Assembly: GCF_000012545.1 (NCBI RefSeq)
Contig: NC_007681.1
Span: forward strand, 1,710,001-1,742,000
Length of the DNA: 32,000 nt
Reading direction: 5' to 3'
DNA from: Methanosphaera stadtmanae DSM 3091
GTDB lineage: Archaea; Methanobacteriota; Methanobacteria; Methanobacteriales; Methanobacteriaceae
Shown piece by piece: positions 12,908-20,635 of this stretch. Both the position numbers and the translations under genes were made by a program. Numbering within the stretch: position 1 is the stretch's first letter; every line of letters begins with the position of its first letter. The notes beneath the pieces were generated by a model. The model saw nothing but the letters and a program-made list of their open reading frames with translations, was not told where the DNA came from and did no database searches.

Positions 12908-13723
12908 ATGTCAAATACAAAAGAGATACTAGAAAAATATAATATTAAACTAGATACAAATAAGAGTCAAAACTATCTAATTGATGATAATAAACTTAAC
13001 ATAATTCTAGAAAATGCAGATATTCAAGATAATGAAACAATTCTTGAAATTGGTGCTGGAATTGGAACACTAACACTTCCTATGGCTAAAAAAGCTAAAA
13101 AAGTAATAGCCATAGAAAAGGATCCTATTATAGTTGACATACTAAAACAACAAATCATAAAAGAAAAACTAACAAACATAGAAATAATCAAAGATGATGC
13201 TCTAAAAGTAGACTTTCCAAAGTTTGACAAAGTAGTTTCAAATCTACCATACCAGATATCTTCACCAGTGACATTCAAATTACTAGAATATCCCTTTAAA
13301 AAAGCTATTTTAATGTATCAACTAGAATTTGCAAAAAGAATGCAGGCAAAACCAGATACGCATGAATATTCTAGATTATCAGTTGCCCTATCCTATAGAG
13401 CAGATACAAAAATTATAGATACTTTACCTCCTGAAGCATTCATACCAAAACCTAAAATTAAAAGTGCAGTAATAGAATTAATACCTAAAAATAACAAACC
13501 AATTGATAAACTATTAGATAATACAATACGAGCCTTATTCCAACATAGAAATAAAAAAGCAAAAAAAGCATTAATTCAATCAGCACATGAATTAGGTGTT
13601 GATAAAAAGGTATTAAAACAAAAATTAAGTAATGTTACTAATGACTTATTTGAAGAAAAAGTATTTAAACTAACTCCAACTCAAATAAAAGAAATATCAT
13701 TAATATTAGAGGGAAATCTATGA
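12908..13723 (+). CDS. ksgA: 16S rRNA dimethyladenosine transferase KsgA/RsmA (Dim1)
   Basis: SAM motif ILEIGAGIGTLT and the catalytic SNLPYQISS. Confidence 0.9.
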   Translation: MSNTKEILEKYNIKLDTNKSQNYLIDDNKLNIILENADIQDNETILEIGAGIGTLTLPMAKKAKKVIAIEKDPIIVDILKQQIIKEKLTNIEIIKDDALKVDFPKFDKVVSNLPYQISSPVTFKLLEYPFKKAILMYQLEFAKRMQAKPDTHEYSRLSVALSYRADTKIIDTLPPEAFIPKPKIKSAVIELIPKNNKPIDKLLDNTIRALFQHRNKKAKKALIQSAHELGVDKKVLKQKLSNVTNDLFEEKVFKLTPTQIKEISLILEGNL

Positions 13724-14313
13724 AATATGAAAATATTAAGTATAATGAATGTGATGAAGTATATCCTCCAGCAGAGGACACTTTTTTATTAATTGATAAT
13801 CTTATTGTTAAAAATAACGATTCTGTTCTAGAAGTAGGTTGTGGATGTGGAATTGTTAGTATTGCTGCATCATTAAATGCAGAAAAAGTAACATCTATTG
13901 ATATTAATCCACATGCTATTAAATGTACAAAAGAAAATATTAAATTAAACAATAGAAAGAACATTGAAGTAATAGAAAGCAATTTATTTGAAAAAATAGA
14001 TGATAAATACGATTTAATACTATTTAACACACCATATCTTCCAGTGACAGAAGAAGAACATGATGTTGATGATGATTATAGTAAAGCATGGGATGGTGGT
14101 GTAGATGGAAGAAAAGTTATTGATGCTTTTTTAGAAGAAGCACCAAAATATTTAAAGGAAGATGGAACAATTCAATTAGTACAATCATCCCTTAGTGATA
14201 ATGAAAAAACATTAAATTATCTAAATAACAATGGATTTAATGCTAAAATCACAGAAAAATATCATCAATTTTTTGAAGATATTACATTAATCAGTGCTAA
14301 AAGAATTCTATAA
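13720..14313 (+). CDS. HemK-related (Mtq2/PrmC-like) SAM-dependent methyltransferase
   Basis: SAM motif VLEVGCGCGIVS and the NPPY-like FNTPYLP. An ATGA overlap with ksgA matches the conserved archaeal neighbourhood. Confidence 0.7.
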   Translation: MKYENIKYNECDEVYPPAEDTFLLIDNLIVKNNDSVLEVGCGCGIVSIAASLNAEKVTSIDINPHAIKCTKENIKLNNRKNIEVIESNLFEKIDDKYDLILFNTPYLPVTEEEHDVDDDYSKAWDGGVDGRKVIDAFLEEAPKYLKEDGTIQLVQSSLSDNEKTLNYLNNNGFNAKITEKYHQFFEDITLISAKRIL

Positions 14314-15201
14314 ATCAAGAACTCTACCATTATTTAGTGATAAATTAGAATCTTCCACTTCTTCTTTATTTTTAAGAGAATTTATATATGTTTTAATTCT
14401 GTCTATTACTTCAAGTATTTCATCCATTTTAGAGTATGTTCTTTGAAGTTTTTCTTCAATATCCCCACATACATCATCATACTGTTTTAAATAGTATAAT
14501 TTTTCTGTAGTAAACTCATTTAATAAAATTTCCTTAGTTGATGTTAATTCTTTTTCTGTATCAAGAACATTATTCAAAAATGTATCTTGTAATTGTGGAT
14601 TACAATCTAATTCATGTTTACTTTCCTCAAAATCATCAATATCCTCTTCAAGTAAACCATTATAGAAGTTATCTATAATTTCATGATATTCCCTTACTTC
14701 AAATTCAGCATTGGTATTTTTATAATCATCAGACTTTACTAATGATTCATATTGAGTTGTAATAACCATCTGTTCTCTAGCCATGAGTAATGCATCGTTT
14801 AATTTTGTCTCCATATCACCAAAAATATCATCCATTGATTTTAAAGCTTGTACTTGAATAGGATCATTTACAATATCGTATAATGAATCTGTGAAATTAA
14901 CTAAAGCTTTTTTTTGAGTACTAATATCATTTAATATCTTTTGTTTTTCCGATTTTGATAGCATGAAAATTCTAGAGGGATGATTTAAGTAAAATTCTAT
15001 TTCTTCCTTTGTAGTTTGAGCATCCTCCATTGTTGTGTTAATTGAATCATTCATAGCATATAGTGATTCATAGAGATTTTTTATATAAATCTTGTTGTTT
15101 ATAACAACAAGTTCATTATTACAGTTTGAACAAATACCACCTTCATCCATATTTAGATTATTTCCACAGAAAGGACAATTATAAAACAATAATATCACCA
15201 C
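14308..15201 (-). CDS. zinc-ribbon protein with a long acidic helical (coiled-coil-like) region; last gene of the candidate operon
   Basis: 297 aa. N-terminal CPFCG-x13-CSNC ribbon; the remainder is D/E/K/L-rich and helical; C-terminus NGRVLDL. GTG start 4 nt after the stop of the upstream gene. Confidence 0.6.
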   Translation of the reverse strand: MVILLFYNCPFCGNNLNMDEGGICSNCNNELVVINNKIYIKNLYESLYAMNDSINTTMEDAQTTKEEIEFYLNHPSRIFMLSKSEKQKILNDISTQKKALVNFTDSLYDIVNDPIQVQALKSMDDIFGDMETKLNDALLMAREQMVITTQYESLVKSDDYKNTNAEFEVREYHEIIDNFYNGLLEEDIDDFEESKHELDCNPQLQDTFLNNVLDTEKELTSTKEILLNEFTTEKLYYLKQYDDVCGDIEEKLQRTYSKMDEILEVIDRIKTYINSLKNKEEVEDSNLSLNNGRVLDL

Positions 15202-15205
15202 GTAA

Positions 15206-15928
15206 CTAATTTAATCTACCAATAATTATTTCTCGTATCATTTCACCATTAAATAGAACATTATGTTGTCTACCTTCAATATTTATTGTAATAGAATTAT
15301 TATCTACGCCAATAAAGTATTCAGGTTTTTGTTTATTTGATCTTTGAATTTTAATTCCATCAAGATAATCTTCAATTGAAACTATCTTATTTATATCTAT
15401 ATTAGTTGTTCTATTAGAACCTAAAAACATGATTCTTTTATTTGTAATTAAGAGTTTTCCATTATCAATATTTCTTATCTCATCATGTGATTCACTTCTA
15501 CCTCTTGTACCACCAGTATGGAGAGTAATTCCCTTTGCAATTCTAATTGATGTTCCACCATATCCTCCCCTACTAACCCTTACAGCACGAGGCTCTTGCA
15601 AAGTTATATTTTCCAATTCAAGTATTGGATGTTCATTTTTCTTTAATAATAAGTCTACTGAATTAATTTGTGGTAACATGGGATTATCAGTACTTAAAGT
15701 ATCCATAAATACTTGAATATCACTATCACGTATTCTTGCTAATTCTTCTTTTTGTGCTTGTTCTATTTCTCCATTTGACAGTCCACCTTCTGTAATCCTA
15801 TCCCACTCTTCCATTGTTAACGGTTGATTATAATAAGTCCATAAAGGAGTATTGGTAATAGCTGTGTTAATAAATTTATATAGATTATTTTCTTGTTTAA
15901 ATGATGTTTTACAAGTATTACACATCAA
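15206..15928 (-). CDS. PH-like (bacterial PH/GRAM-like) domain protein; 3-prime portion of a frameshifted triple zinc-ribbon gene
   Basis: The 240-aa track ORF starts at TTG, but my translation shows the frame stays open upstream to 16243 with no ATG/GTG/TTG start. That extension encodes CPNC (the second half of a ribbon) and a CPLC-x21-CNTC ribbon. C-terminal part: Gly-rich strands RVSRGGYGGTSIRIAKGITLHTGGTRGRS, then DNGKLLITNKRIMFLGSNR...IVSIEDY..GIKI. Confidence 0.6.
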   Translation of the reverse strand: MMCNTCKTSFKQENNLYKFINTAITNTPLWTYYNQPLTMEEWDRITEGGLSNGEIEQAQKEELARIRDSDIQVFMDTLSTDNPMLPQINSVDLLLKKNEHPILELENITLQEPRAVRVSRGGYGGTSIRIAKGITLHTGGTRGRSESHDEIRNIDNGKLLITNKRIMFLGSNRTTNIDINKIVSIEDYLDGIKIQRSNKQKPEYFIGVDNNSITINIEGRQHNVLFNGEMIREIIIGRLN

Positions 15929-16199
15929 TATTATAGAATCTGAGAATAATCCATCTTTTTCATAAATATTAAGCCTATTATGACATAATGGACAATCTAT
16001 AGATGAAAAACCATTGTTTTTATATTCATATATCTCATTTATTTCACTATTTGATAAATTATCAGAGAATATATTTTGCCATTCACCTATTGTAAAACTC
16101 TTATATAAATACTTGTTTCTAGCTCTTGTACCTTCATGTGCATTTGTAAGGGTTAAATTAGTATTATCTTCACGAAATTCAAGACCACAATTTGGACAA

Positions 16200-16484
16200 T
16201 TATGATAAGTTCCTCCAGATAAAGCCTGTTTTTGTATAAGTATTCAGTTGACTACTACAATGTGGACAAATACTATTATCATCCACATGGGAATTATCTC
16301 CATTATAGTTAAAATTGTTGTTATTTTCATTATAATTGTTGTTATAATCTACATCATAATTTGGCTCAAAATTATCTTCATTTGAATATTGATTATTTTC
16401 TACTGGAAATTTATATCCACAATTTATACAATACTTTGAATTTTCAATACGTTCACTTCCACATTCTGGACAAAAATTATTCAT
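16200..16484 (-). CDS. zinc-ribbon protein fragment; 5-prime portion of the frameshifted gene
   Basis: 94 aa. FCPECG-x10-CINCG ribbon, an Asn-rich linker, then CPHC followed by a short out-of-frame tail. It joins the 15206-16243 frame if one T of the T5 run at 16229-16233 is removed. Confidence 0.6.
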   Translation of the reverse strand: MNNFCPECGSERIENSKYCINCGYKFPVENNQYSNEDNFEPNYDVDYNNNYNENNNNFNYNGDNSHVDDNSICPHCSSQLNTYTKTGFIWRNLS

Positions 16485-16492
16485 AATAACAC

Positions 16493-17089
16493 CTACATCA
16501 TATTTTCAAAGAATTTTCTAATTTCTTTATTATTACCCATACCATTTACAACAAAAGAACCATCTTTATTTAATCTAATTTCAATCTTATTTTCTATAGA
16601 ATCTAAATTATTCTCTAAATAACTGTATTTATCTGTTAAAAAATGATATTTCTGATTTAATGATCCAATCCAAGGTTTTTTATACGTGATTTTATCTTGA
16701 TTAAAAAAACCAGATATTAAAATATCAGTTTGTGATAATAACTTATTCCAATTGCTACAATTAATTTTTCTAATAATATCATAAGTATATCCTGTAAAAG
16801 TAACAATAGAAAGACCATTATCATGTAATATTACTGCTAATTCACCTAACGCCTTTGATTGTAGAAATGGTTCTCCACCAGAAAATGTAACACCTTCAAT
16901 ATCCTTATTTTTAAGTATATTCTTAGCTAACTTCTTAACATCATACAAAATACCCCCATCTAAATCCCATGTTTGGGGAGAATTACATCCAATACAATGT
17001 TTTAAACATCCTTGTACAAATATAGAAGTTCTATTTCCCGGTCCTTCCACCATAGTATTTTCAATAATAGTATTTACTCTTAAAAACAT
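16493..17089 (-). CDS. NrdG-type radical SAM activating enzyme (anaerobic RNR activase family)
   Basis: 198 aa. VEGPGNRTSIFVQGCLKHCIGCNSPQTW (CxxxCxxC cluster motif), SGGEPF, FTGYTY, GSLNQK: the pattern of small glycyl-radical-enzyme activases. Confidence 0.8.
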   Translation of the reverse strand: MFLRVNTIIENTMVEGPGNRTSIFVQGCLKHCIGCNSPQTWDLDGGILYDVKKLAKNILKNKDIEGVTFSGGEPFLQSKALGELAVILHDNGLSIVTFTGYTYDIIRKINCSNWNKLLSQTDILISGFFNQDKITYKKPWIGSLNQKYHFLTDKYSYLENNLDSIENKIEIRLNKDGSFVVNGMGNNKEIRKFFENMM

Positions 17090-17116
17090 AAAATCACTAT
17101 AACCTCCGAGATATTA

Positions 17117-18775
17117 CTAGAAATCTAATGTTCTTCCACCTCTAGAATCACTAATTTCATCATCAGGAGTTGGAATTTCTGGTTTTGGATTATTAGAATC
17201 TGTTGATGTTTGTGTATACTCCATCCTATCTTCTTGTGCTGTTGCTGCTACTGCTCTTACATTAGCCCAATTACGTATACTTATTATTTGTTCTGCTTGT
17301 GTTACACTTAAAGGTACTGTATTTTTAACAGCATTTTCAAAGTCATTTAATGTTATGCTACGATCTTCAGAAAATGCATCATATAATCCCATGACAACAA
17401 TTTGTTCCAATTCAGATCCACCAAATCCTTCAGTAATATTAGAAAGATGTTTTAATGTTTCATCATTAATTTCAAAATCTCCCCTTACTTCAGGATAAGT
17501 TAATCTAGACTCCAAATGTACTTTAAATATCTGTTTTCTTTCATTAAATGTTGGTAAATCAATAAAAAATATTTCATCAAATCTACCTTTACGCATCATT
17601 TCTGAAGGTAGGCTATCTATATTGTTTGCTGTTGCTACAACAAAAACTGGTTTTGTTTTTTCCTGCATCCAACTAAGAAATGTTCCAAATATACGACTTG
17701 TTGTACCACTATCTCCACTACCACCAAGTCCACTAAAACCCTTTTCTATTTCATCAATCCAGAGAACACATGGTGAGATTGCTTCAGCCATTTTTATTGC
17801 TTCACGCATATTTGATTCACTATTTCCAACATACATGTTAAATACTTTTGAAACATCAAATCTAAGTAGAGGTAAGTGCCACATTGAACTTATAGATTTA
17901 GCTATTAAACTCTTTCCACAACCAGGAACACCTGTTAATAACACCCCTTTAGGTGAAGGAAGTCCATATTTTTTTGCTGAATCTAACCATGATTTATCAC
18001 GTTTTGATAACCATTTCTTTAGATTTTCTAGTCCACCAACATCTTCTATTTTTACTTTTGAATCTATGTATTCTAGAATATCACTTTTTTTAATAACTTG
18101 ACTTTTTTCCTTTAAAACAATATCCACATCCTCAGAATTTAAACATCCGTCATTAACCATAGCTCTTGCAAATGCGTTTTCAGCTTCTTGTAATGTTAAA
18201 CCTACAGCTGCTTTAACTAATTCTTCTTTTTCTTTTGGATTTAGATTTACTTTTAAATTTCCACCACTATTATCCCTTATTATTCCATCAAGAACAGATG
18301 CTATCTCATCTGATGTTGGCAAATCAAAATCTAAAACTGTAATATCCTTTTTTAAATCATCAGGTAATGTGAATGTTGGTGACACAAAGATAACATTTCT
18401 AAAATTTCTTGCTTGTTTTAAGTTAGGAATAAGATCTTTAAGAAATCTTACAACAGTATCATCAAAGTTACCTGAAGTATTTTTACAGAAAACATGGAAA
18501 TCCAAGAATATAAATAAAGCATCTTCTTCACATTTTCTAACAAAATTCAATGCTTGTATTTTCTCATAAGTATCCTCCTGTATCATCCCATTTGAGTCTT
18601 TAAATCCCTCAGAGGATTTCCATACATATACCTTTCTTACACTATTAATTAAATCTGGTGTAGATACAATTCTTGTTAATTCCTTTATTAATCTAGTTTC
18701 CTCATAAGTTGTTATGTGAATATATGGAAATCGAGCCCTTAATAAATCACATGTTTCTTTCTCAAAATTATTCAT
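17117..18775 (-). CDS. Ycf46-type AAA+ ATPase (N-terminal domain plus a single classical AAA module)
   Basis: 552 aa. Walker A GVPGCGKS, Walker B CVLWIDEIEKGF, and SGDSGTTSRIFGTFLSWMQEKTKPVFVVATANNIDSLPSEMMRKGRFDEIFFIDLP. This closely matches what I recall of cyanobacterial/plastid Ycf46, including N-terminal RFPYIHITTYEETR. Disordered C-terminal tail ending GGRTLDF. Confidence 0.8.
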   Translation of the reverse strand: MNNFEKETCDLLRARFPYIHITTYEETRLIKELTRIVSTPDLINSVRKVYVWKSSEGFKDSNGMIQEDTYEKIQALNFVRKCEEDALFIFLDFHVFCKNTSGNFDDTVVRFLKDLIPNLKQARNFRNVIFVSPTFTLPDDLKKDITVLDFDLPTSDEIASVLDGIIRDNSGGNLKVNLNPKEKEELVKAAVGLTLQEAENAFARAMVNDGCLNSEDVDIVLKEKSQVIKKSDILEYIDSKVKIEDVGGLENLKKWLSKRDKSWLDSAKKYGLPSPKGVLLTGVPGCGKSLIAKSISSMWHLPLLRFDVSKVFNMYVGNSESNMREAIKMAEAISPCVLWIDEIEKGFSGLGGSGDSGTTSRIFGTFLSWMQEKTKPVFVVATANNIDSLPSEMMRKGRFDEIFFIDLPTFNERKQIFKVHLESRLTYPEVRGDFEINDETLKHLSNITEGFGGSELEQIVVMGLYDAFSEDRSITLNDFENAVKNTVPLSVTQAEQIISIRNWANVRAVAATAQEDRMEYTQTSTDSNNPKPEIPTPDDEISDSRGGRTLDF

Positions 18776-18814
18776 TTTCTTGCCCTTTTTTAGTTAGTAT
18801 GAGAAGTAATAATA

Positions 18815-19573
18815 TTAATCAATGTTTAAAGTTAATATTATAGAATTGTTGTTATCAACTACTTCTGATTCTACCACATATTTTTCTTTTTTGATTTTAT
18901 CCATAACTTTATTATATGTTATTTCTTGAATAGCTTCCTTATATTCATCAGTTAAGTTTTGAATATAACTCTTAGCTTCTTTTCTATTAAAATCTCCTAC
19001 AAACATTATGTCATATGTTCCTTCAGTTGTTTTGTTAAGTAATATTTTACCATTACCTTTAAATTTCATTAAATCCTCTTGAGAAGCAAATCCTAAAAAA
19101 CTACTTCTCATTATAGATTCTATTACATAAGAATTAGTCATAATAGTAGAAATTTTAAATTTAGGAAGTTCTTTTTTCTTTTCTTCTATTTTTTCTGAAG
19201 AATCAATTTTTAATATAGGAGCTCCTGTAATTTTTGTATATTCCGCACATATTGCATTGACAAAATTAATTGTATCTTCTCTAGGGAAGTTTCCTGTAAA
19301 AAGAATTTCAACTTTCTGACCACCCTGTGTATAAAATAACATTTCCCCTTTATTTCTAAATTCCATTAGTTTTTGTTTATTTTTAAAACCAAAAAAATTA
19401 TTGGGGTTATCAAACACTACATCCATTCCTGCTAAGTTATCAACATTTGTTTTAACTTTGAAACTAACACCATTTACCTTATCGCCTAATTCTGTTATAT
19501 CAACAGCCGCATCAATTTTATCAAGATCACTACTTCCCAATGAACGTGGAACTGATTGTAGATGTAAACTCAT
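18815..19573 (-). CDS. Ycf35/DUF1257-like protein with an internal duplication
   Basis: 252 aa. Starts MSLH... and ends ...ITYNKVMDKIKKEKYVVESEVVDNNNSIILTL, as I recall for DUF1257. Two homologous segments: FFGFKNKQKLMEFRNKGEML...VEILFTGNFPREDTINFVNAICAEYTK and FLGFASQEDLMKFKGNGKIL...YDIMFVGDFNRKEAKSYIQNLTDEYKE. Confidence 0.5.
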   Translation of the reverse strand: MSLHLQSVPRSLGSSDLDKIDAAVDITELGDKVNGVSFKVKTNVDNLAGMDVVFDNPNNFFGFKNKQKLMEFRNKGEMLFYTQGGQKVEILFTGNFPREDTINFVNAICAEYTKITGAPILKIDSSEKIEEKKKELPKFKISTIMTNSYVIESIMRSSFLGFASQEDLMKFKGNGKILLNKTTEGTYDIMFVGDFNRKEAKSYIQNLTDEYKEAIQEITYNKVMDKIKKEKYVVESEVVDNNNSIILTLNID

Positions 19574-19587
19574 AAAATCACCTGAAT

Positions 19588-19794
19588 TTAATAATTTTTA
19601 TTTAAGAATTCTTTATTCTGAGTATTCATTTCTTTTTCATAGTATTCTGGAGTGTACTCTTTTTTAACTACTTTAGAATCAGTTAATTCCTCTATAATTT
19701 TTAAATAATCCTCACATTTTTGACCTTTAATTCCTTTTGTTTCAGCTTCAACTACGCCATCTTTACGAATCTTAATAATTAATTTTTTAGACAT
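19588..19794 (-). CDS. DUF2997-like small protein; first gene of the candidate operon
   Basis: 68 aa. LIIKIRKDGVVEAETKGIKGQKCEDYLKIIEEL...TPEYYEKE fits the DUF2997 pattern I.I..DG.V..E..G..G..C.....E.L....T.EYY (from memory). A GGTGGA RBS lies upstream. Confidence 0.55.
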   Translation of the reverse strand: MSKKLIIKIRKDGVVEAETKGIKGQKCEDYLKIIEELTDSKVVKKEYTPEYYEKEMNTQNKEFLNKNY

Positions 19795-20083
19795 AATTCC
19801 ACCATGTTATTAAATTCTTATTATTATATTTCTTTTTAAATTAATAAATTTATTCTATTACTTTTTGATAAAAGATAATCTAAAACTACTATGAGAATAT
19901 TAGAATTATTTAAAATAGATAAGAAAGTAAAAAAACATGATATACTCTATTTATTAGATAAAAGTAATTTTTATTAATGAATAAGTATAAAAGTAGAATA
20001 AAAGAAATATATTTTAACTTATATCATTTTAGAAATTAATAAAAAGATATTGAAAGTTTTTAATTTAAAAGAAGGAGATTCAA
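19795..20083. promoter_or_regulatory. divergent promoter region between the candidate operon and the ComEA-like gene
   Basis: 289-bp AT-rich spacer between divergent genes. RBS GGTGGA (plus coordinates 19798-19803, minus strand) precedes the ATG at 19794. RBS GGAG at 20074-20077 lies 6 nt before the TTG at 20084. TATA boxes cannot be pinned by eye in this composition. Confidence 0.4.
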
Positions 20084-20635
20084 TTGTCAGACAATGATGC
20101 GTGTATTGGATGTGTAGCACTTATATTTTTAATCTCTATTGTTGGAGCTTTGTGGCCTGCAGGAAGTGTTATTTTATTTTTTATCATTGGTTTTTATATT
20201 TTATATCTATGTTTTAAACCTCCTGAAAATAAAGATGAACATACCTATAACAACACAGAAAACCAAAACAATAACAGAAACAATAACAGAAATAAAAACC
20301 AAAACAATAAACATAACCCAGCTGATGACTTCAATAATATAAATAATGAAAATATTAGACCAAATGAAGTTAATAGAAAGAACAAAAACATTGAAAAAAT
20401 AGATATTAATACTGCAGGAATTGATGATATTAAAAAGTTACCTGGAATAACTATAATTTCTGCTAAAAAACTTATCCAATATCGTGAAAATGGAAATTAT
20501 GTTAAATCAATGTATGATTTAGGAGAAAAACTAAATTTAAAAGATTATCAATTAGAGCAACTACGACCTTATGTGTTGATTTCTAAAAATAAAGAATACA
20601 CAACAACCAACTACACTAGAAGGGTAGATTTATAA
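20084..20635 (+). CDS. membrane-anchored ComEA-like helix-hairpin-helix DNA-binding protein
   Basis: 183 aa with a TTG start and a strong RBS. N-terminal hydrophobic helices (CVALIFLISIVGALWPAGSVILFFIIGFYILYLCF), an Asn-rich linker, and C-terminal HhH IDINTAGIDDIKKLPGITIISAKKLIQYRENG. Ends RRVDL. Confidence 0.65.
   Translation: MSDNDACIGCVALIFLISIVGALWPAGSVILFFIIGFYILYLCFKPPENKDEHTYNNTENQNNNRNNNRNKNQNNKHNPADDFNNINNENIRPNEVNRKNKNIEKIDINTAGIDDIKKLPGITIISAKKLIQYRENGNYVKSMYDLGEKLNLKDYQLEQLRPYVLISKNKEYTTTNYTRRVDL

Follow-up and report, generated by a model that had tools for sequence, protein, structure and literature searches.

The locus described here, which lies in a window of 32,000 nucleotides of DNA from the gut methanogen Methanosphaera stadtmanae, belongs, judging from sequence comparison, to a conserved cassette that moves horizontally and in which five gene families are co-inherited, namely an AAA+ ATPase (A), a DUF1257-like protein (Y), a DUF2997 protein (d), a radical SAM enzyme of a clade of its own (R) and a membrane-anchored HHH_3 helix-hairpin-helix (HhH) protein (H). 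One and the same cassette, combining an unfoldase, a radical enzyme, two small uncharacterised proteins and membrane-anchored DNA-binding proteins with a common short tail, is common to distant bacteria, archaea and plasmids. It appears to be undescribed so far, and no description of it was found in PADLOC, in the NCBIfam system models or in a literature search. The original prediction of a co-conserved, uncharacterised multi-gene system was borne out, the partners being kept in all 26 loci compared and their adjacency not being fortuitous. In contrast, the conserved unit does not consist of the six genes that were proposed, but of the five-family core, which includes a divergent gene at 20084-20635 that had been overlooked.

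Six co-directional genes on the minus strand span positions 19794 to 14308 and are separated by 14, 39, 27, 8 and 4 nt; both this block and its spacings, as predicted, were exact on recheck. The 289-bp AT-rich region at 19795-20083 that had been placed upstream is also present. It is a divergent intergenic region (no strand assigned) that matched no Rfam family and presumably contains the promoters for both divergent transcription units. At the opposite end, a convergent methyltransferase gene (13720-14313) shares 6 nt with the end of gene 6. Pus10, L21e, Rpb4/RpoF, KsgA and an MTS methyltransferase were identified in the flanks, which confirmed the expected housekeeping flank of pus10, rpl21e, rpoF, ksgA and a hemK-like gene.

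Wherever the contig allowed, A, Y, d and H were encoded within a few kb of every radical SAM gene scoring at least 176 bits on an HMM of the R family, and they were found beside none of the homologs below 170 bits. The partner genes were present in 26 of 26 non-redundant loci with an R of this clade, from Bacillota, Actinomycetota, Melainabacteria, Planctomycetota, Riflebacteria and two archaeal orders. Hosts include Halalkalibacterium, Clostridium, Neobacillus and Paenibacillus, as well as Methanobacterium, Methanosphaera, Methanomethylophilaceae, Gastranaerophilales, Riflebacteria and Planctomycetaceae. The cassette is plasmid-borne in B. cereus/thuringiensis, Rhodococcus and Paenarthrobacter, with IS elements flanking some of the plasmid cassettes. 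Gene order and genomic site vary among the loci; R comes immediately after H in 17 of 25 loci, and the two genes commonly overlap by 1-4 nt. The suggestion that the block is accessory cargo fits at the scale of the genus and above, where plasmids of some bacteria carry the cassette and other Methanosphaera species have it at different genomic sites. Within M. stadtmanae, by contrast, its site did not differ among the six assemblies examined. Identical copies of the AAA+ protein are recorded on about 600 contigs, and this, together with the fixed site, looks more like a core function.

Matches on viral contigs included true cassettes in 3 of 80 cases. Neighbours of the cassettes were mostly ordinary genes, about 3 of 132 giving strong PADLOC matches, and no defence-island signal was found in this survey of 132 neighbours. 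The proposed PADLOC check for a known system likewise yielded no fitting system model: d, Y and H of the window had no match, the matches to A and R were generic and far from family level, and the sole match of gene 6 was weak (PDC-M09A, E 0.0017).

The fourth gene of the block (16493-17089, minus strand) encodes R, a radical SAM enzyme of 198 aa (Fer4_12, E 4.5e-31) with the NrdG/PflA-like motifs VEGPGxR, Cx3Cx2C and GGEP and with about 50 additional C-terminal residues that are specific to the family (W-x-G-S-x-N-Q-x-Y-H-F-L ... DG-x-x-x-x-NG). Its only PDB relative by sequence is PflA (3C8F/3CB8). This gene could in principle be the organism's plain NrdG lying beside unrelated hypothetical genes, since its best match is NrdG both in NCBIfam (TIGR02491, 104 bits, E 6e-30) and in PHROG, and relatives are named 'anaerobic ribonucleoside-triphosphate reductase activating protein' in some databases. 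However, we consider this explanation extremely improbable. The score lies under the curated NrdG cut-off of 126 bits, the clade has its own extension and always stands beside A, Y, d and H, and an NrdD-like ORF was next to an R-clade gene in 0 of 26 cassette loci, compared with 24 of 60 control loci of NrdG-like genes, which also had none of the cassette genes. A chance neighbourhood is thus contradicted by the extension, the constant partners and the absent NrdD, and the low score and missing NrdD neighbour also indicate that R is not a ribonucleotide reductase activase. On sequence grounds, R is a distinct NrdG/PflA-like clade, separate from the housekeeping NrdG. This supports the earlier reading of an orphan NrdG-type enzyme. 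In addition, no conserved glycyl-radical fingerprint was found in the cassette proteins, the single look-alike, in gene 5, being unconserved.

The first two genes of the block encode small proteins. The 68-aa protein d (19588-19794, minus strand) belongs to DUF2997 as predicted (Pfam PF11211, 64.3 bits against a cut-off of 24), matches phrog_23133 and carries the conserved motif DG-x-[IV]-x-x-E-x-x-G-[IV]-K-G-x-x-C ... EYYE; DUF2997 proteins were found in 26 cassette loci. Y (18815-19573, minus strand; 252 aa) consists of two beta-alpha-alpha-beta-beta-alpha domains and has the family-typical C-terminus E-x-E-x-[IV]-x-[ED]-[DN]-N-S-I-[IV]-L-T. It had been called a duplicated Ycf35/DUF1257-like protein; the family alignment shows the duplication to be real, but the relation to DUF1257 appears only below threshold, as Y had no DUF1257 match in Pfam and PF06868 (DUF1257) touches 4 of 28 members of the Y family, all below threshold. 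An AlphaFold2 model of Y (mean pLDDT 78) had no significant neighbour in the PDB.

Gene 3 (17117-18775, minus strand) encodes the 552-aa AAA+ ATPase A (Pfam AAA, E 1.8e-33), as originally predicted. Its N-terminal domain (residues 1-230) is degenerate, D1-like and without a P-loop, and its classic-clade D2 domain contains the pore loop MYVG, the Walker B motif DEIE and arginine fingers. These are followed by a disordered linker and a tail ending in DEISDSRGGRTLDF; among the cassette loci, RGGR is nearly invariant in the A tails. The closest PDB sequence is the D2 domain of VAT/p97, and the p97-like AlphaFold2 model (pLDDT 86, below 62 in the tail), in which the pore loop is intact, could be aligned with p97, Rix7 and AFG2 across about 545 columns. 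A also matches phrog_8638 at 5e-144, and one Methanosphaera genome contains two AAA+ paralogs. These features suggest that A is a Cdc48/p97-like unfoldase of the threading kind with an active D2 and an inactive D1-like domain.

The overlooked gene (20084-20635, plus strand), transcribed divergently from the six minus-strand genes, has a TTG start with AGGAG 7 nt ahead and encodes H, a membrane-anchored protein of 183 aa (Pfam HHH_3, E 9.3e-16). Two N-terminal hydrophobic helices are followed by an Asn/Arg-rich repeat linker, an HHH_3 domain and the end TRRVDL, and this C-terminal tail agrees with the family consensus. H also had a ComEA HhH match in the NCBIfam/Pfam profile search and was matched by an HMM for which the YxeC/HHH_3 proteins encoded in bacterial cassettes served as input. 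A 12-nt tandem repeat (AAACAATAACAG; 20266-20310, plus strand; 3.8 copies by TRF) encodes (NNNR)n in the linker, and its number is the sole difference among the variants of 183, 187, 219 and 223 aa in M. stadtmanae assemblies. H paralogs are expanded up to sevenfold in cassette loci.

The last two genes of the block are lineage-specific. Gene 5 (15206-16484, minus strand) is a pseudogene here, read in two frames (16200-16484 and 15206-15928) because, compared with intact alleles, it has lost 2 bp at about 16221/16222 (GGCTT[CT]TATCTGG). Slippage in the run of A is not the source of the frameshift. An intact 426-aa gene was found in 4 of 6 other M. stadtmanae assemblies and the same deletion in 2 of 6. 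The intact allele encodes three zinc ribbons and, at the C-terminus, a PH-like domain, the Pfam/NCBIfam search giving zinc ribbons and weak PH-like matches; homologs of the PH-like domain occur in unrelated genomic contexts, and residues 65-243 of the gene 5 product share homology with the N-terminus of an HhH-plus-tail protein of Methanosphaera sp. ISO3-F5. The zinc ribbons, PH-like domain and frameshift noticed earlier are thus real, but gene 5 is an accessory gene inactivated in this strain and lies outside the conserved core. Gene 6 (14308-15201, minus strand; about 293-297 aa), whose product has a zinc ribbon at the N-terminus, then a long helical stretch and finally the tail NNGRVLDL, has an ortholog (27% identity, E 7e-25) ending in GDGRLLDL within another Methanosphaera cassette. 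Its inclusion in the system was correct in so far as it has the tail and this ortholog, but it is not core; its sequence suggests a lineage-specific tail-bearing client or adaptor.

Several of these proteins share a tail. A tip of the form R-x-hydrophobic-D/E-hydrophobic-COOH ends 22 of 23 A proteins and 32 of 35 H proteins, and was found in 0 of 66 other core proteins, in 0 of 824 control proteins and in 4 of 319 other genes of the cassette loci. Two of these four are gene 6 and its ortholog; the other two, for a TPR protein and an Mrr_cat nuclease, lie directly against the cassette in a single locus. The tip is absent from the AAA+ proteins of triads lacking R (Pseudanabaena and B. licheniformis elements), which suggests that it tracks the presence of R; a P. 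polymyxa variant has R and an AAA+ protein without the tip. The tip may be read as a docking peptide that would link the unfoldase and interchangeable DNA-binding or DNA-cutting proteins to one receptor, and since it tracks R and is absent from R-less relatives, R would most probably be this receptor. A glycyl-radical site in the H tails is unlikely because the residue before the tip Arg is not a conserved Gly (E-R in Melainabacteria, T-R-R in the window).

The original prediction had weighed a conflict system against a protein-modification machine, and of the two the new evidence rather favours a conflict system directed at DNA. Tentatively, and with somewhat less than even confidence, we favour a mobile system of this kind in which tip-docked DNA proteins, an unfoldase and a radical SAM enzyme work at the membrane. 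H would supply one or more DNA-touching proteins, usually a membrane-anchored HhH protein and in one locus an Mrr-type nuclease; A would remodel or extract the tip-bearing proteins; and R would take a hydrogen atom either from bound DNA or from a glycine of a partner protein, most plausibly one in the invariant RGGR of the ATPase tail. The whole would act on DNA at the membrane as a defence or exclusion module, to which M. stadtmanae adds its zinc-ribbon extras, with gene 5 broken in this strain. Variable order and site, H expansion, AAA+ paralogs and IS-flanked plasmid cassettes point to mobility and conflict, as does a sister radical SAM clade, encoded beside ArdA on conjugative plasmids in one operon with MkoA-like helicase, PIN and ClpB-like AAA genes. 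Ordinary neighbours, few viral cassettes and the fixed site in M. stadtmanae speak against conflict.

Alternatively, though rather unlikely, the cassette could be a protein-remodelling or stress machine, in which a Ycf46-like unfoldase and its DUF1257/DUF2997 partners form a chaperone-like module, the tip-bearing membrane proteins are substrates that it extracts or unfolds, and DNA binding by HhH is incidental or regulatory. R would then modify a partner protein, for example at the RGGR tail or at G-[IV]-K-G-x-x-C of DUF2997, by a glycyl radical or another radical-derived change. Consistent with this, every one of the closest characterised relatives of R (NrdG, PflA, YjjW) activates a protein glycine, and R keeps their GPGxR, Cx3Cx2C and GGEP motifs; A has an intact pore loop and p97-like architecture, RGGR is near-invariant, the neighbourhoods are housekeeping-like, and the cassette does not change site among the M. 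stadtmanae assemblies examined. Furthermore, an R-less AAA+/DUF1257/DUF2997 triad on a cyanobacterial plasmid adjoins Hsp70/GrpE, and cyanobacterial ycf46 belongs to a stress-induced operon tied to growth arrest; both observations point to protein remodelling and away from a role on DNA. However, no cassette protein has a conserved glycyl-radical fingerprint, and the occurrence of the cassette in the aerobes Rhodococcus, Paenarthrobacter and B. cereus speaks against a stable glycyl radical, which would be oxygen-labile; obligate aerobes are among the hosts. H-R is the best-conserved gene pair, H has a DNA-binding fold and is replaced by an Mrr nuclease in one locus, and plasmid carriage and patchy inter-domain spread are atypical for a core proteostasis factor.

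A third reading, which we consider improbable, is DNA maintenance, uptake or repair, in which a ComEA-like HhH protein would hold DNA at the membrane, R would repair or modify it by chemistry like that of spore photoproduct lyase (SPL) or the putative 'DNA modification/repair radical SAM' proteins, and the ATPase would recycle the complex. The HHH_3/ComEA-type domains, the translational coupling of H and R, a precedent for fused Fer4_12 and HHH_3 domains, the ordinary neighbourhoods and the lack of a toxin-like effector in most loci would fit this. But NrdG/PflA are much closer to R than is any radical SAM family that acts on DNA; among the NCBIfam matches listed for R there is no DNA-repair family, whether SPL or of TIGR03916 type; and the diversified H paralogs, Mrr client, variable order and plasmid spread fit the favoured conflict system better than repair.

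When the cassette is compared with known systems, NrdG (TIGR02491) and PflA share with R the small single-cluster Fer4_12 fold, the N-terminal GPGxR, Cx3Cx2C and GGEP, whereas R has the extra C-terminal segment and scores below the NrdG cut-off, adjoins the AAA+, DUF1257-like, DUF2997 and HhH genes but never NrdD or a protein with the glycyl-radical fingerprint, and occurs also in aerobes. The cyanobacterial and plastid Ycf46/Ycf35/DUF2997 set resembles the cassette in its DUF2997 domain, its DUF1257-related middle gene and an AAA+ protein of the same two-domain architecture as A; on a Pseudanabaena plasmid, an HMM of the A N-domain matches (E 2.5e-41) the AAA+ protein encoded next to genes annotated as DUF1257 and DUF2997, and the DUF2997-ycf35 pairing is already recorded in cyanobacteria (PMC4284462). 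For Ycf46, associations are physiological only (stress, CO2, circadian clock), its mechanism not being established. However, in the cyanobacterial and phage versions examined the radical SAM and HhH genes are missing and the AAA+ protein has no tip, and cassette Y falls below the Pfam threshold for DUF1257, has an extra N-terminal segment (hydrophobic in bacterial members) and is duplicated in Methanosphaera. The Fer4_12 + HHH_3 fusion, itself uncharacterised, has in one protein the domains that the cassette encodes in adjacent, often overlapping genes, but it belongs to another radical SAM clade, lacks the tip and is partnered by neither AAA+ nor DUF1257 nor DUF2997. Among known anti-phage systems, similarity to viperin (pVip, to R) and IetAS (IetA, to A) is generic only. 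The Mokosh-like variant on conjugative plasmids, which also recalls Dodola, in which the sister clade stands beside an MkoA-like helicase (E 7e-102), PIN and a DolB-like ClpB ATPase, shares solely the radical SAM clade with the window cassette. Type II unfoldases (Cdc48/p97/VAT) share the tandem AAA architecture, classic-clade D2 and aromatic pore loop of A, whose D1 differs in having no P-loop. HbYX, GQYL and the SSB tip are extreme C-terminal peptides that dock proteins onto a receptor. The cassette tip differs in motif from HbYX and GQYL, with no proteasome-like partner encoded; in A it follows a disordered linker, much as the tip of bacterial SSB does, and by analogy different proteins presumably dock through it to one receptor.

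Homologs of the radical SAM protein encoded by gene 4 of the window were numerous (1,634 at E <= 1e-5), and the best matches, of ~197 aa each, came from Methanosphaera, Methanobacterium, Clostridium, Halalkalibacterium and other taxa. In H. halodurans, Clostridium sp. and Methanobacterium, the genes follow the order AAA+ (~550 aa), a ~150-aa protein, DUF2997, a YxeC/HHH_3 protein (~247 aa) and the radical SAM gene last; two further Methanosphaera species have the same families, but at other genomic sites and in other gene orders. HMMs built from six cassettes were then applied to 80 genome loci found with the radical SAM alignment. Wherever the radical SAM protein (R) scored 176 bits or more and the contig was sufficient, genes for the Cdc48/Ycf46-like AAA+ protein (A), a DUF1257-like protein (Y), DUF2997 (d) and a membrane HhH (HHH_3) protein (H) were present within a few kb. 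Loci with an R score below 170 bits had zero cassette genes and comprised true NrdG-like proteins (165-175 aa) and a cyanobacterial group of ~208 aa. The members of this cyanobacterial group (loci L040, L045, L047, L062, L065, L068, L074, L078 and L080) are 33-39% identical to R of the window, lie in varied housekeeping contexts without cassette genes or NrdD nearby, and are a separate orphan activase-like family. The co-inheritance of the five families is accompanied by a coupling of H to R, in that H directly precedes R in 17 of 25 loci, often with an overlap of 1-4 nt; A is followed by Y in 16 and R by A in 14 of the 25 loci.

The original prediction, that six genes at 14308-19794 form a co-conserved and undescribed system, was therefore right as to the existence of a co-conserved system but not as to its membership. 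Genes 5 and 6 were not found in bacterial or Methanobacterium cassettes, and the predicted set left out the divergent HhH gene at 20084-20635, which is the H component of the window. Because of this, and of the co-occurrence scan, the unit is taken to be the five genes A-Y-d-H-R, and it is very likely that they make up a real, self-contained and undescribed cassette.

In the window, whose G+C content is ~26%, the six minus-strand ORFs were found between 19794 and 14308 as predicted, with gaps of exactly 14, 39, 27, 8 and 4 nt, and the neighbouring Pus10, L21e, RpoF, KsgA and methyltransferase genes were as described. Most of the family labels were borne out by profile searches: gene 1 matched DUF2997 (PF11211; 64.3 bits against a Pfam gathering threshold of 24.1), gene 3 Pfam AAA (E 1.8e-33), gene 4 (16493-17089) the Fer4_12 fold (E 4.5e-31) and gene 5 zinc ribbons, with weak PH-like matches. 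Gene 6 (14308-15201) gave a weak match to a double zinc ribbon. Gene 2, however, had no match to DUF1257/Ycf35 (PF06868, gathering threshold 22.2 bits), although the internal duplication attributed to it is real.

The frameshift reported in gene 5 was also confirmed. It results from a 2-bp deletion (GGCTT[CT]TATCTGG, ~16221/16222), and the gene is intact (426 aa) in four of six other M. stadtmanae assemblies and has the identical deletion in the remaining two; the deletion is a true strain polymorphism and not a homopolymer sequencing slip. A second site of variation lies inside the H gene, at 20266-20310, where a 12-nt tandem repeat encodes (NNNR)n in the HhH linker. Assemblies of M. stadtmanae differ in repeat number, from ~2 to 13 copies, and the encoded proteins range from 183 to 223 aa; two assemblies have Ns there. 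This could be either a contingency-type length polymorphism or an assembly difficulty. For gene 6, translation could begin at GTG (15201 or 15198) or at TTG (15189). Some assemblies instead call the start at an ATG further downstream, for a product of 280 aa in which the zinc ribbon would lose its first CxxC; when the ortholog is aligned, the upstream starts are preferred. Slight degeneration of the M. stadtmanae copy is possible, as residue 22 of R (16493-17089) is Ser, against Cys in 15 of the 16 family members aligned (...NRTC[IV]..., outside Cx3Cx2C), and the tail of its HhH protein, TRRVDL, is without the usual Gly/Glu.

A short C-terminal tip, R-x-hydrophobic-D/E-hydrophobic, is common to A, H and accessory proteins. 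The AAA+ proteins end in [ST]-R-G-G-R-[TAS]-[LIV]-D-[FVL] and the HhH proteins in (G/E)-R-x-[ILV]-D-[FLYIW]. When one regular expression was run over every called gene, the tip was found in 22/23 AAA+ and 32/35 HhH proteins, in none of 66 other core proteins, in 4 of 319 other genes of cassette loci, and in none of 824 genes of control loci. Gene 6 (NNGRVLDL) is one of the four outside the core; the others are its ortholog in a different Methanosphaera cassette (27% identity, E 7e-25; GDGRLLDL) and two genes abutting a cassette of Gastranaerophilales. The counts in cassette and control genes make the tip a specific badge of the proteins of this system, and gene 6, which carries it, is by this measure part of the system. 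Gene 5 lacks the tip, but its zinc-ribbon region shows homology to the N-terminal part of the HhH-plus-tip protein of Methanosphaera sp. ISO3-F5, and in the metagenome scan its relatives were found only in M. stadtmanae itself. In the Gastranaerophilales MAG (locus L020, 5015-8549), the HhH genes are replaced by those for a 926-aa TPR protein and a 246-aa protein with the Mrr_cat restriction-endonuclease fold, whose tails are ...KKGRAVEW and ...YGRRLDV.

In sequence, the AAA+ of the window is nearest to the VAT and p97 D2 domains. Its AlphaFold2 model (pLDDT 86) aligned over ~545 columns, covering both domains, with p97, Rix7 and AFG2, and on this basis residues 1-230 are predicted to form a D1-like fold. 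This N-domain is without a Walker A/P-loop (ITTYEETR in place of GxxGxGKT), and the D2 domain, as read from sequence, has the pore loop MYVG, Walker B and arginine fingers. Docking of the tail within the same molecule was considered and rejected, since the tail has a pLDDT of 42-62 in the AlphaFold2 model and follows a low-confidence linker. With 5,302 cluster representatives at E <= 1e-30, its family is a large one, has the tip in a minority only and includes phage members (phrog_8638, E 5e-144); copies 100% identical to the AAA+ of the window are on record on ~600 contigs. The DUF1257-like family is a distant relative of DUF1257, as its HMM matches an annotated DUF1257 protein (E 3e-7); four of its 28 members match PF06868, all below threshold (best E 4.7e-4). 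Its structure, predicted from a 7-sequence alignment of gene 2 (pLDDT 78), has two β-α-α-β-β-α domains and no significant PDB neighbour. The H gene of the window encodes two N-terminal hydrophobic helices followed by HHH_3 (E 9.3e-16).

The nearest NCBIfam model to gene 4 is that of NrdG (TIGR02491), to which it scored 104.1 bits, below the curated equivalog cut-off of 126.1. No NrdD-like ORF (large, with a C-terminal RxxGY glycyl-radical loop) was found in the 26 cassette loci or in the window, against 24 of 60 control loci with NrdG-like genes, in which it lies directly upstream, mostly within 300 nt, and ends in ...RRITGYLVGT. R has the activase motifs Cx3Cx2C, GGEP and N-terminal G-P-G-x-R, and in alignment A1 residues C28, C32, C35, G71-P74, E15-G16-P17 and R20 are invariant. 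Two sequence motifs were considered and rejected. As a candidate glycyl-radical site beside an activase, VRVS(R/K)GGY of gene 5 resembles the RVSGY loop of PFL, but the residues at this place are unrelated in PH-domain homologs of Prevotella and Yersinia plasmids. As to SRGGR as a universal mark of partners of the R clade, a MkoA-like helicase of Moellerella ends in SRGGRV but its Polaromonas ortholog in EGRRR, which leaves a weak lead.

Cassettes occur in Bacillota, Actinomycetota, Melainabacteria, Planctomycetota, Riflebacteria, Methanobacteriales and Methanomethylophilaceae, and on plasmids of B. cereus/thuringiensis (between IS4 copies), Rhodococcus and Paenarthrobacter. They can be as small as ~4 kb (Halalkalibacterium, Methanobacterium, Rhodococcus), and H paralogs are expanded up to sevenfold. 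Methanosphaera sp. ISO3-F5 (CP118753) has two AAA+ paralogs (P0221 and P0230), each 73% identical to the AAA+ of the window, on one 2.5-Mb chromosome, and may therefore hold two cassette copies. Carriage by phages was rejected as a general feature, since only three of 80 viral-contig matches were true cassettes and the remainder were phage NrdG genes. Enrichment in defence islands was likewise rejected: the 132 neighbouring genes, scanned with Pfam and PADLOC, were mixed and mostly housekeeping, with ~3 strong PADLOC matches, and no further conserved partner was found among them.

Several variants were also seen. AAA+/DUF1257/DUF2997 triads without R occur on a Pseudanabaena plasmid and a 205-kb linear element of B. 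licheniformis, and their AAA+ is without the tip. The former (L184; Pseudanabaena galeata plasmid pPg_01, 129.8-138.0 kb) is an operon for GrpE, an Hsp70-family protein, DUF1257, an ATP-binding protein, a hypothetical protein, DUF2997, a Ycf46-like AAA+ and a 734-aa protein, which ties the triad to Hsp70-type chaperones. On Paenibacillus polymyxa plasmid p-YT9A (L182), a tip-less AAA+, a bona fide DUF1257 protein, DUF2997 and a radical SAM protein are found with two HhH-less membrane proteins that end in SRVIHF and KRVIRL, with His or Arg at the acidic position of the tail. At both ends of a viral contig of jumbo-phage size (L174/L175; IMG/VR 3300035034_002798, 171 kb), genes for a tail-less Ycf46-like AAA+ and DUF2997 lie inside the terminal repeat, ~1-4 kb from an NrdG-like gene. 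A sister clade of the radical SAM protein (36% identity) comes last in a five-gene operon, after a MkoA-like SF1 helicase (PADLOC MkoA, E 7e-102), an 800-aa PIN_4 protein, a coiled-coil hypothetical protein and a ClpB/DolB-like AAA+. This operon was found on Moellerella plasmid NZ_CP093250.1 (178.8-188.8 kb; L090/L180), a conjugative plasmid on which it adjoins ArdA, and on Polaromonas pPNAP02 (L181), and it has the look of an undescribed system related to Mokosh, one that likewise pairs an unfoldase with an activase-like radical SAM protein.

The tip could act as a docking peptide on a flexible linker; a similar docking logic is found in the C-terminal tip of SSB and in the HbYX/GQYL tails of proteasome activators. 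R is the probable receptor, because the tip goes together with R and is lacking in those R-less triads that were examined, and because only R has a family-specific extra segment. The clients so recruited would bind DNA (HhH) or, in one case, cut it (Mrr_cat), which favours a system directed at DNA, while its mobility, the modular swapping of clients, the expansion of paralogs and the Mokosh-like sister operon lend it the flavour of a conflict system. We tentatively put a DNA-directed conflict system at slightly less than an even chance. In the main alternative, the cassette would be a machine for protein remodelling or stress, with R forming a radical on a partner protein, and the invariant RGGR of the AAA+ tail would be the best candidate for the radical site. 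However, a stable glycyl radical sits poorly with the aerobic cassette hosts Rhodococcus, Paenarthrobacter and B. cereus, the Gly is not conserved among H tails, and in silico no substrate with a glycyl-radical fingerprint was found among the cassette proteins or their neighbours; we consider this alternative possible and on the whole doubtful. A more novel form of the conflict-system reading, a new class in which the tip couples an activase-like R and a Cdc48-like unfoldase to exchangeable DNA sensors or effectors tethered to the membrane, with radical chemistry aimed at invading DNA or at a protein switch and not at metabolism, is speculative and on the whole doubtful. If true, it would be a new use of glycyl-radical-activase-type enzymes, which so far are known only as partners of a few anaerobic metabolic enzymes.

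As predicted, the cassette is not a known defence system in PADLOC-DB 2.0 or NCBIfam 20.0. In PADLOC-DB 2.0, with the HhH protein outside the scan, DUF2997, the DUF1257-like protein and the gene-5 C-terminal protein had no match, gene 6 had a single weak match, and A and R had only generic similarity to IetA, TRIP13 and pVip; NCBIfam 20.0 (June 2026) has no model specific to the cassette. Full-text literature searches outside subscription journals (DUF2997, DUF1257, Ycf46 + radical SAM, NrdG + defence, Fer4_12 + HHH_3) yielded no description of it. The compact cassette is transferable to model hosts and testable, and the tip is a mutable handle for pull-downs and genome-wide discovery of clients. 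The host, a methanogen prevalent in the human gut, varies between strains at two points of the system: gene 5, with its deletion, and the linker repeat of the HhH gene. For cyanobacterial Ycf46, Ycf35 and DUF2997, only conservation and physiological associations are known. Since the AAA+/DUF1257/DUF2997 core is homologous to them, biochemistry done here should transfer to the cyanobacterial and algal-plastid genes, and the new-class form of the conflict-system reading, if true, would provide the first mechanistic handle on the three proteins in cyanobacteria and plastids.

The AAA+ has the layout of Ycf46-type proteins, a degenerate N-domain and one AAA domain, with full-length homologs at E < 1e-100 across 150 cluster representatives, and its N-domain HMM matches AAA+ genes beside annotated DUF1257/DUF2997. 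As to ComEA-type DNA receptors, which have HHH_3 and an N-terminal membrane anchor and lie among competence genes, the HhH protein of the window matched HHH_3, but it scored 25.8 bits against the comE subfamily model (cut-off 152), and its context is the cassette and not competence genes. For R, PflA is the sole solved relative by sequence, aligned over PflA residues 13-88. The VEGPGxR, Cx3Cx2C and GGEP of R are typical of glycyl-radical-enzyme activases, from which it differs by an added conserved C-terminal segment of ~50 aa, W-x-G-S-x-N-Q-x-Y-H-F-L....
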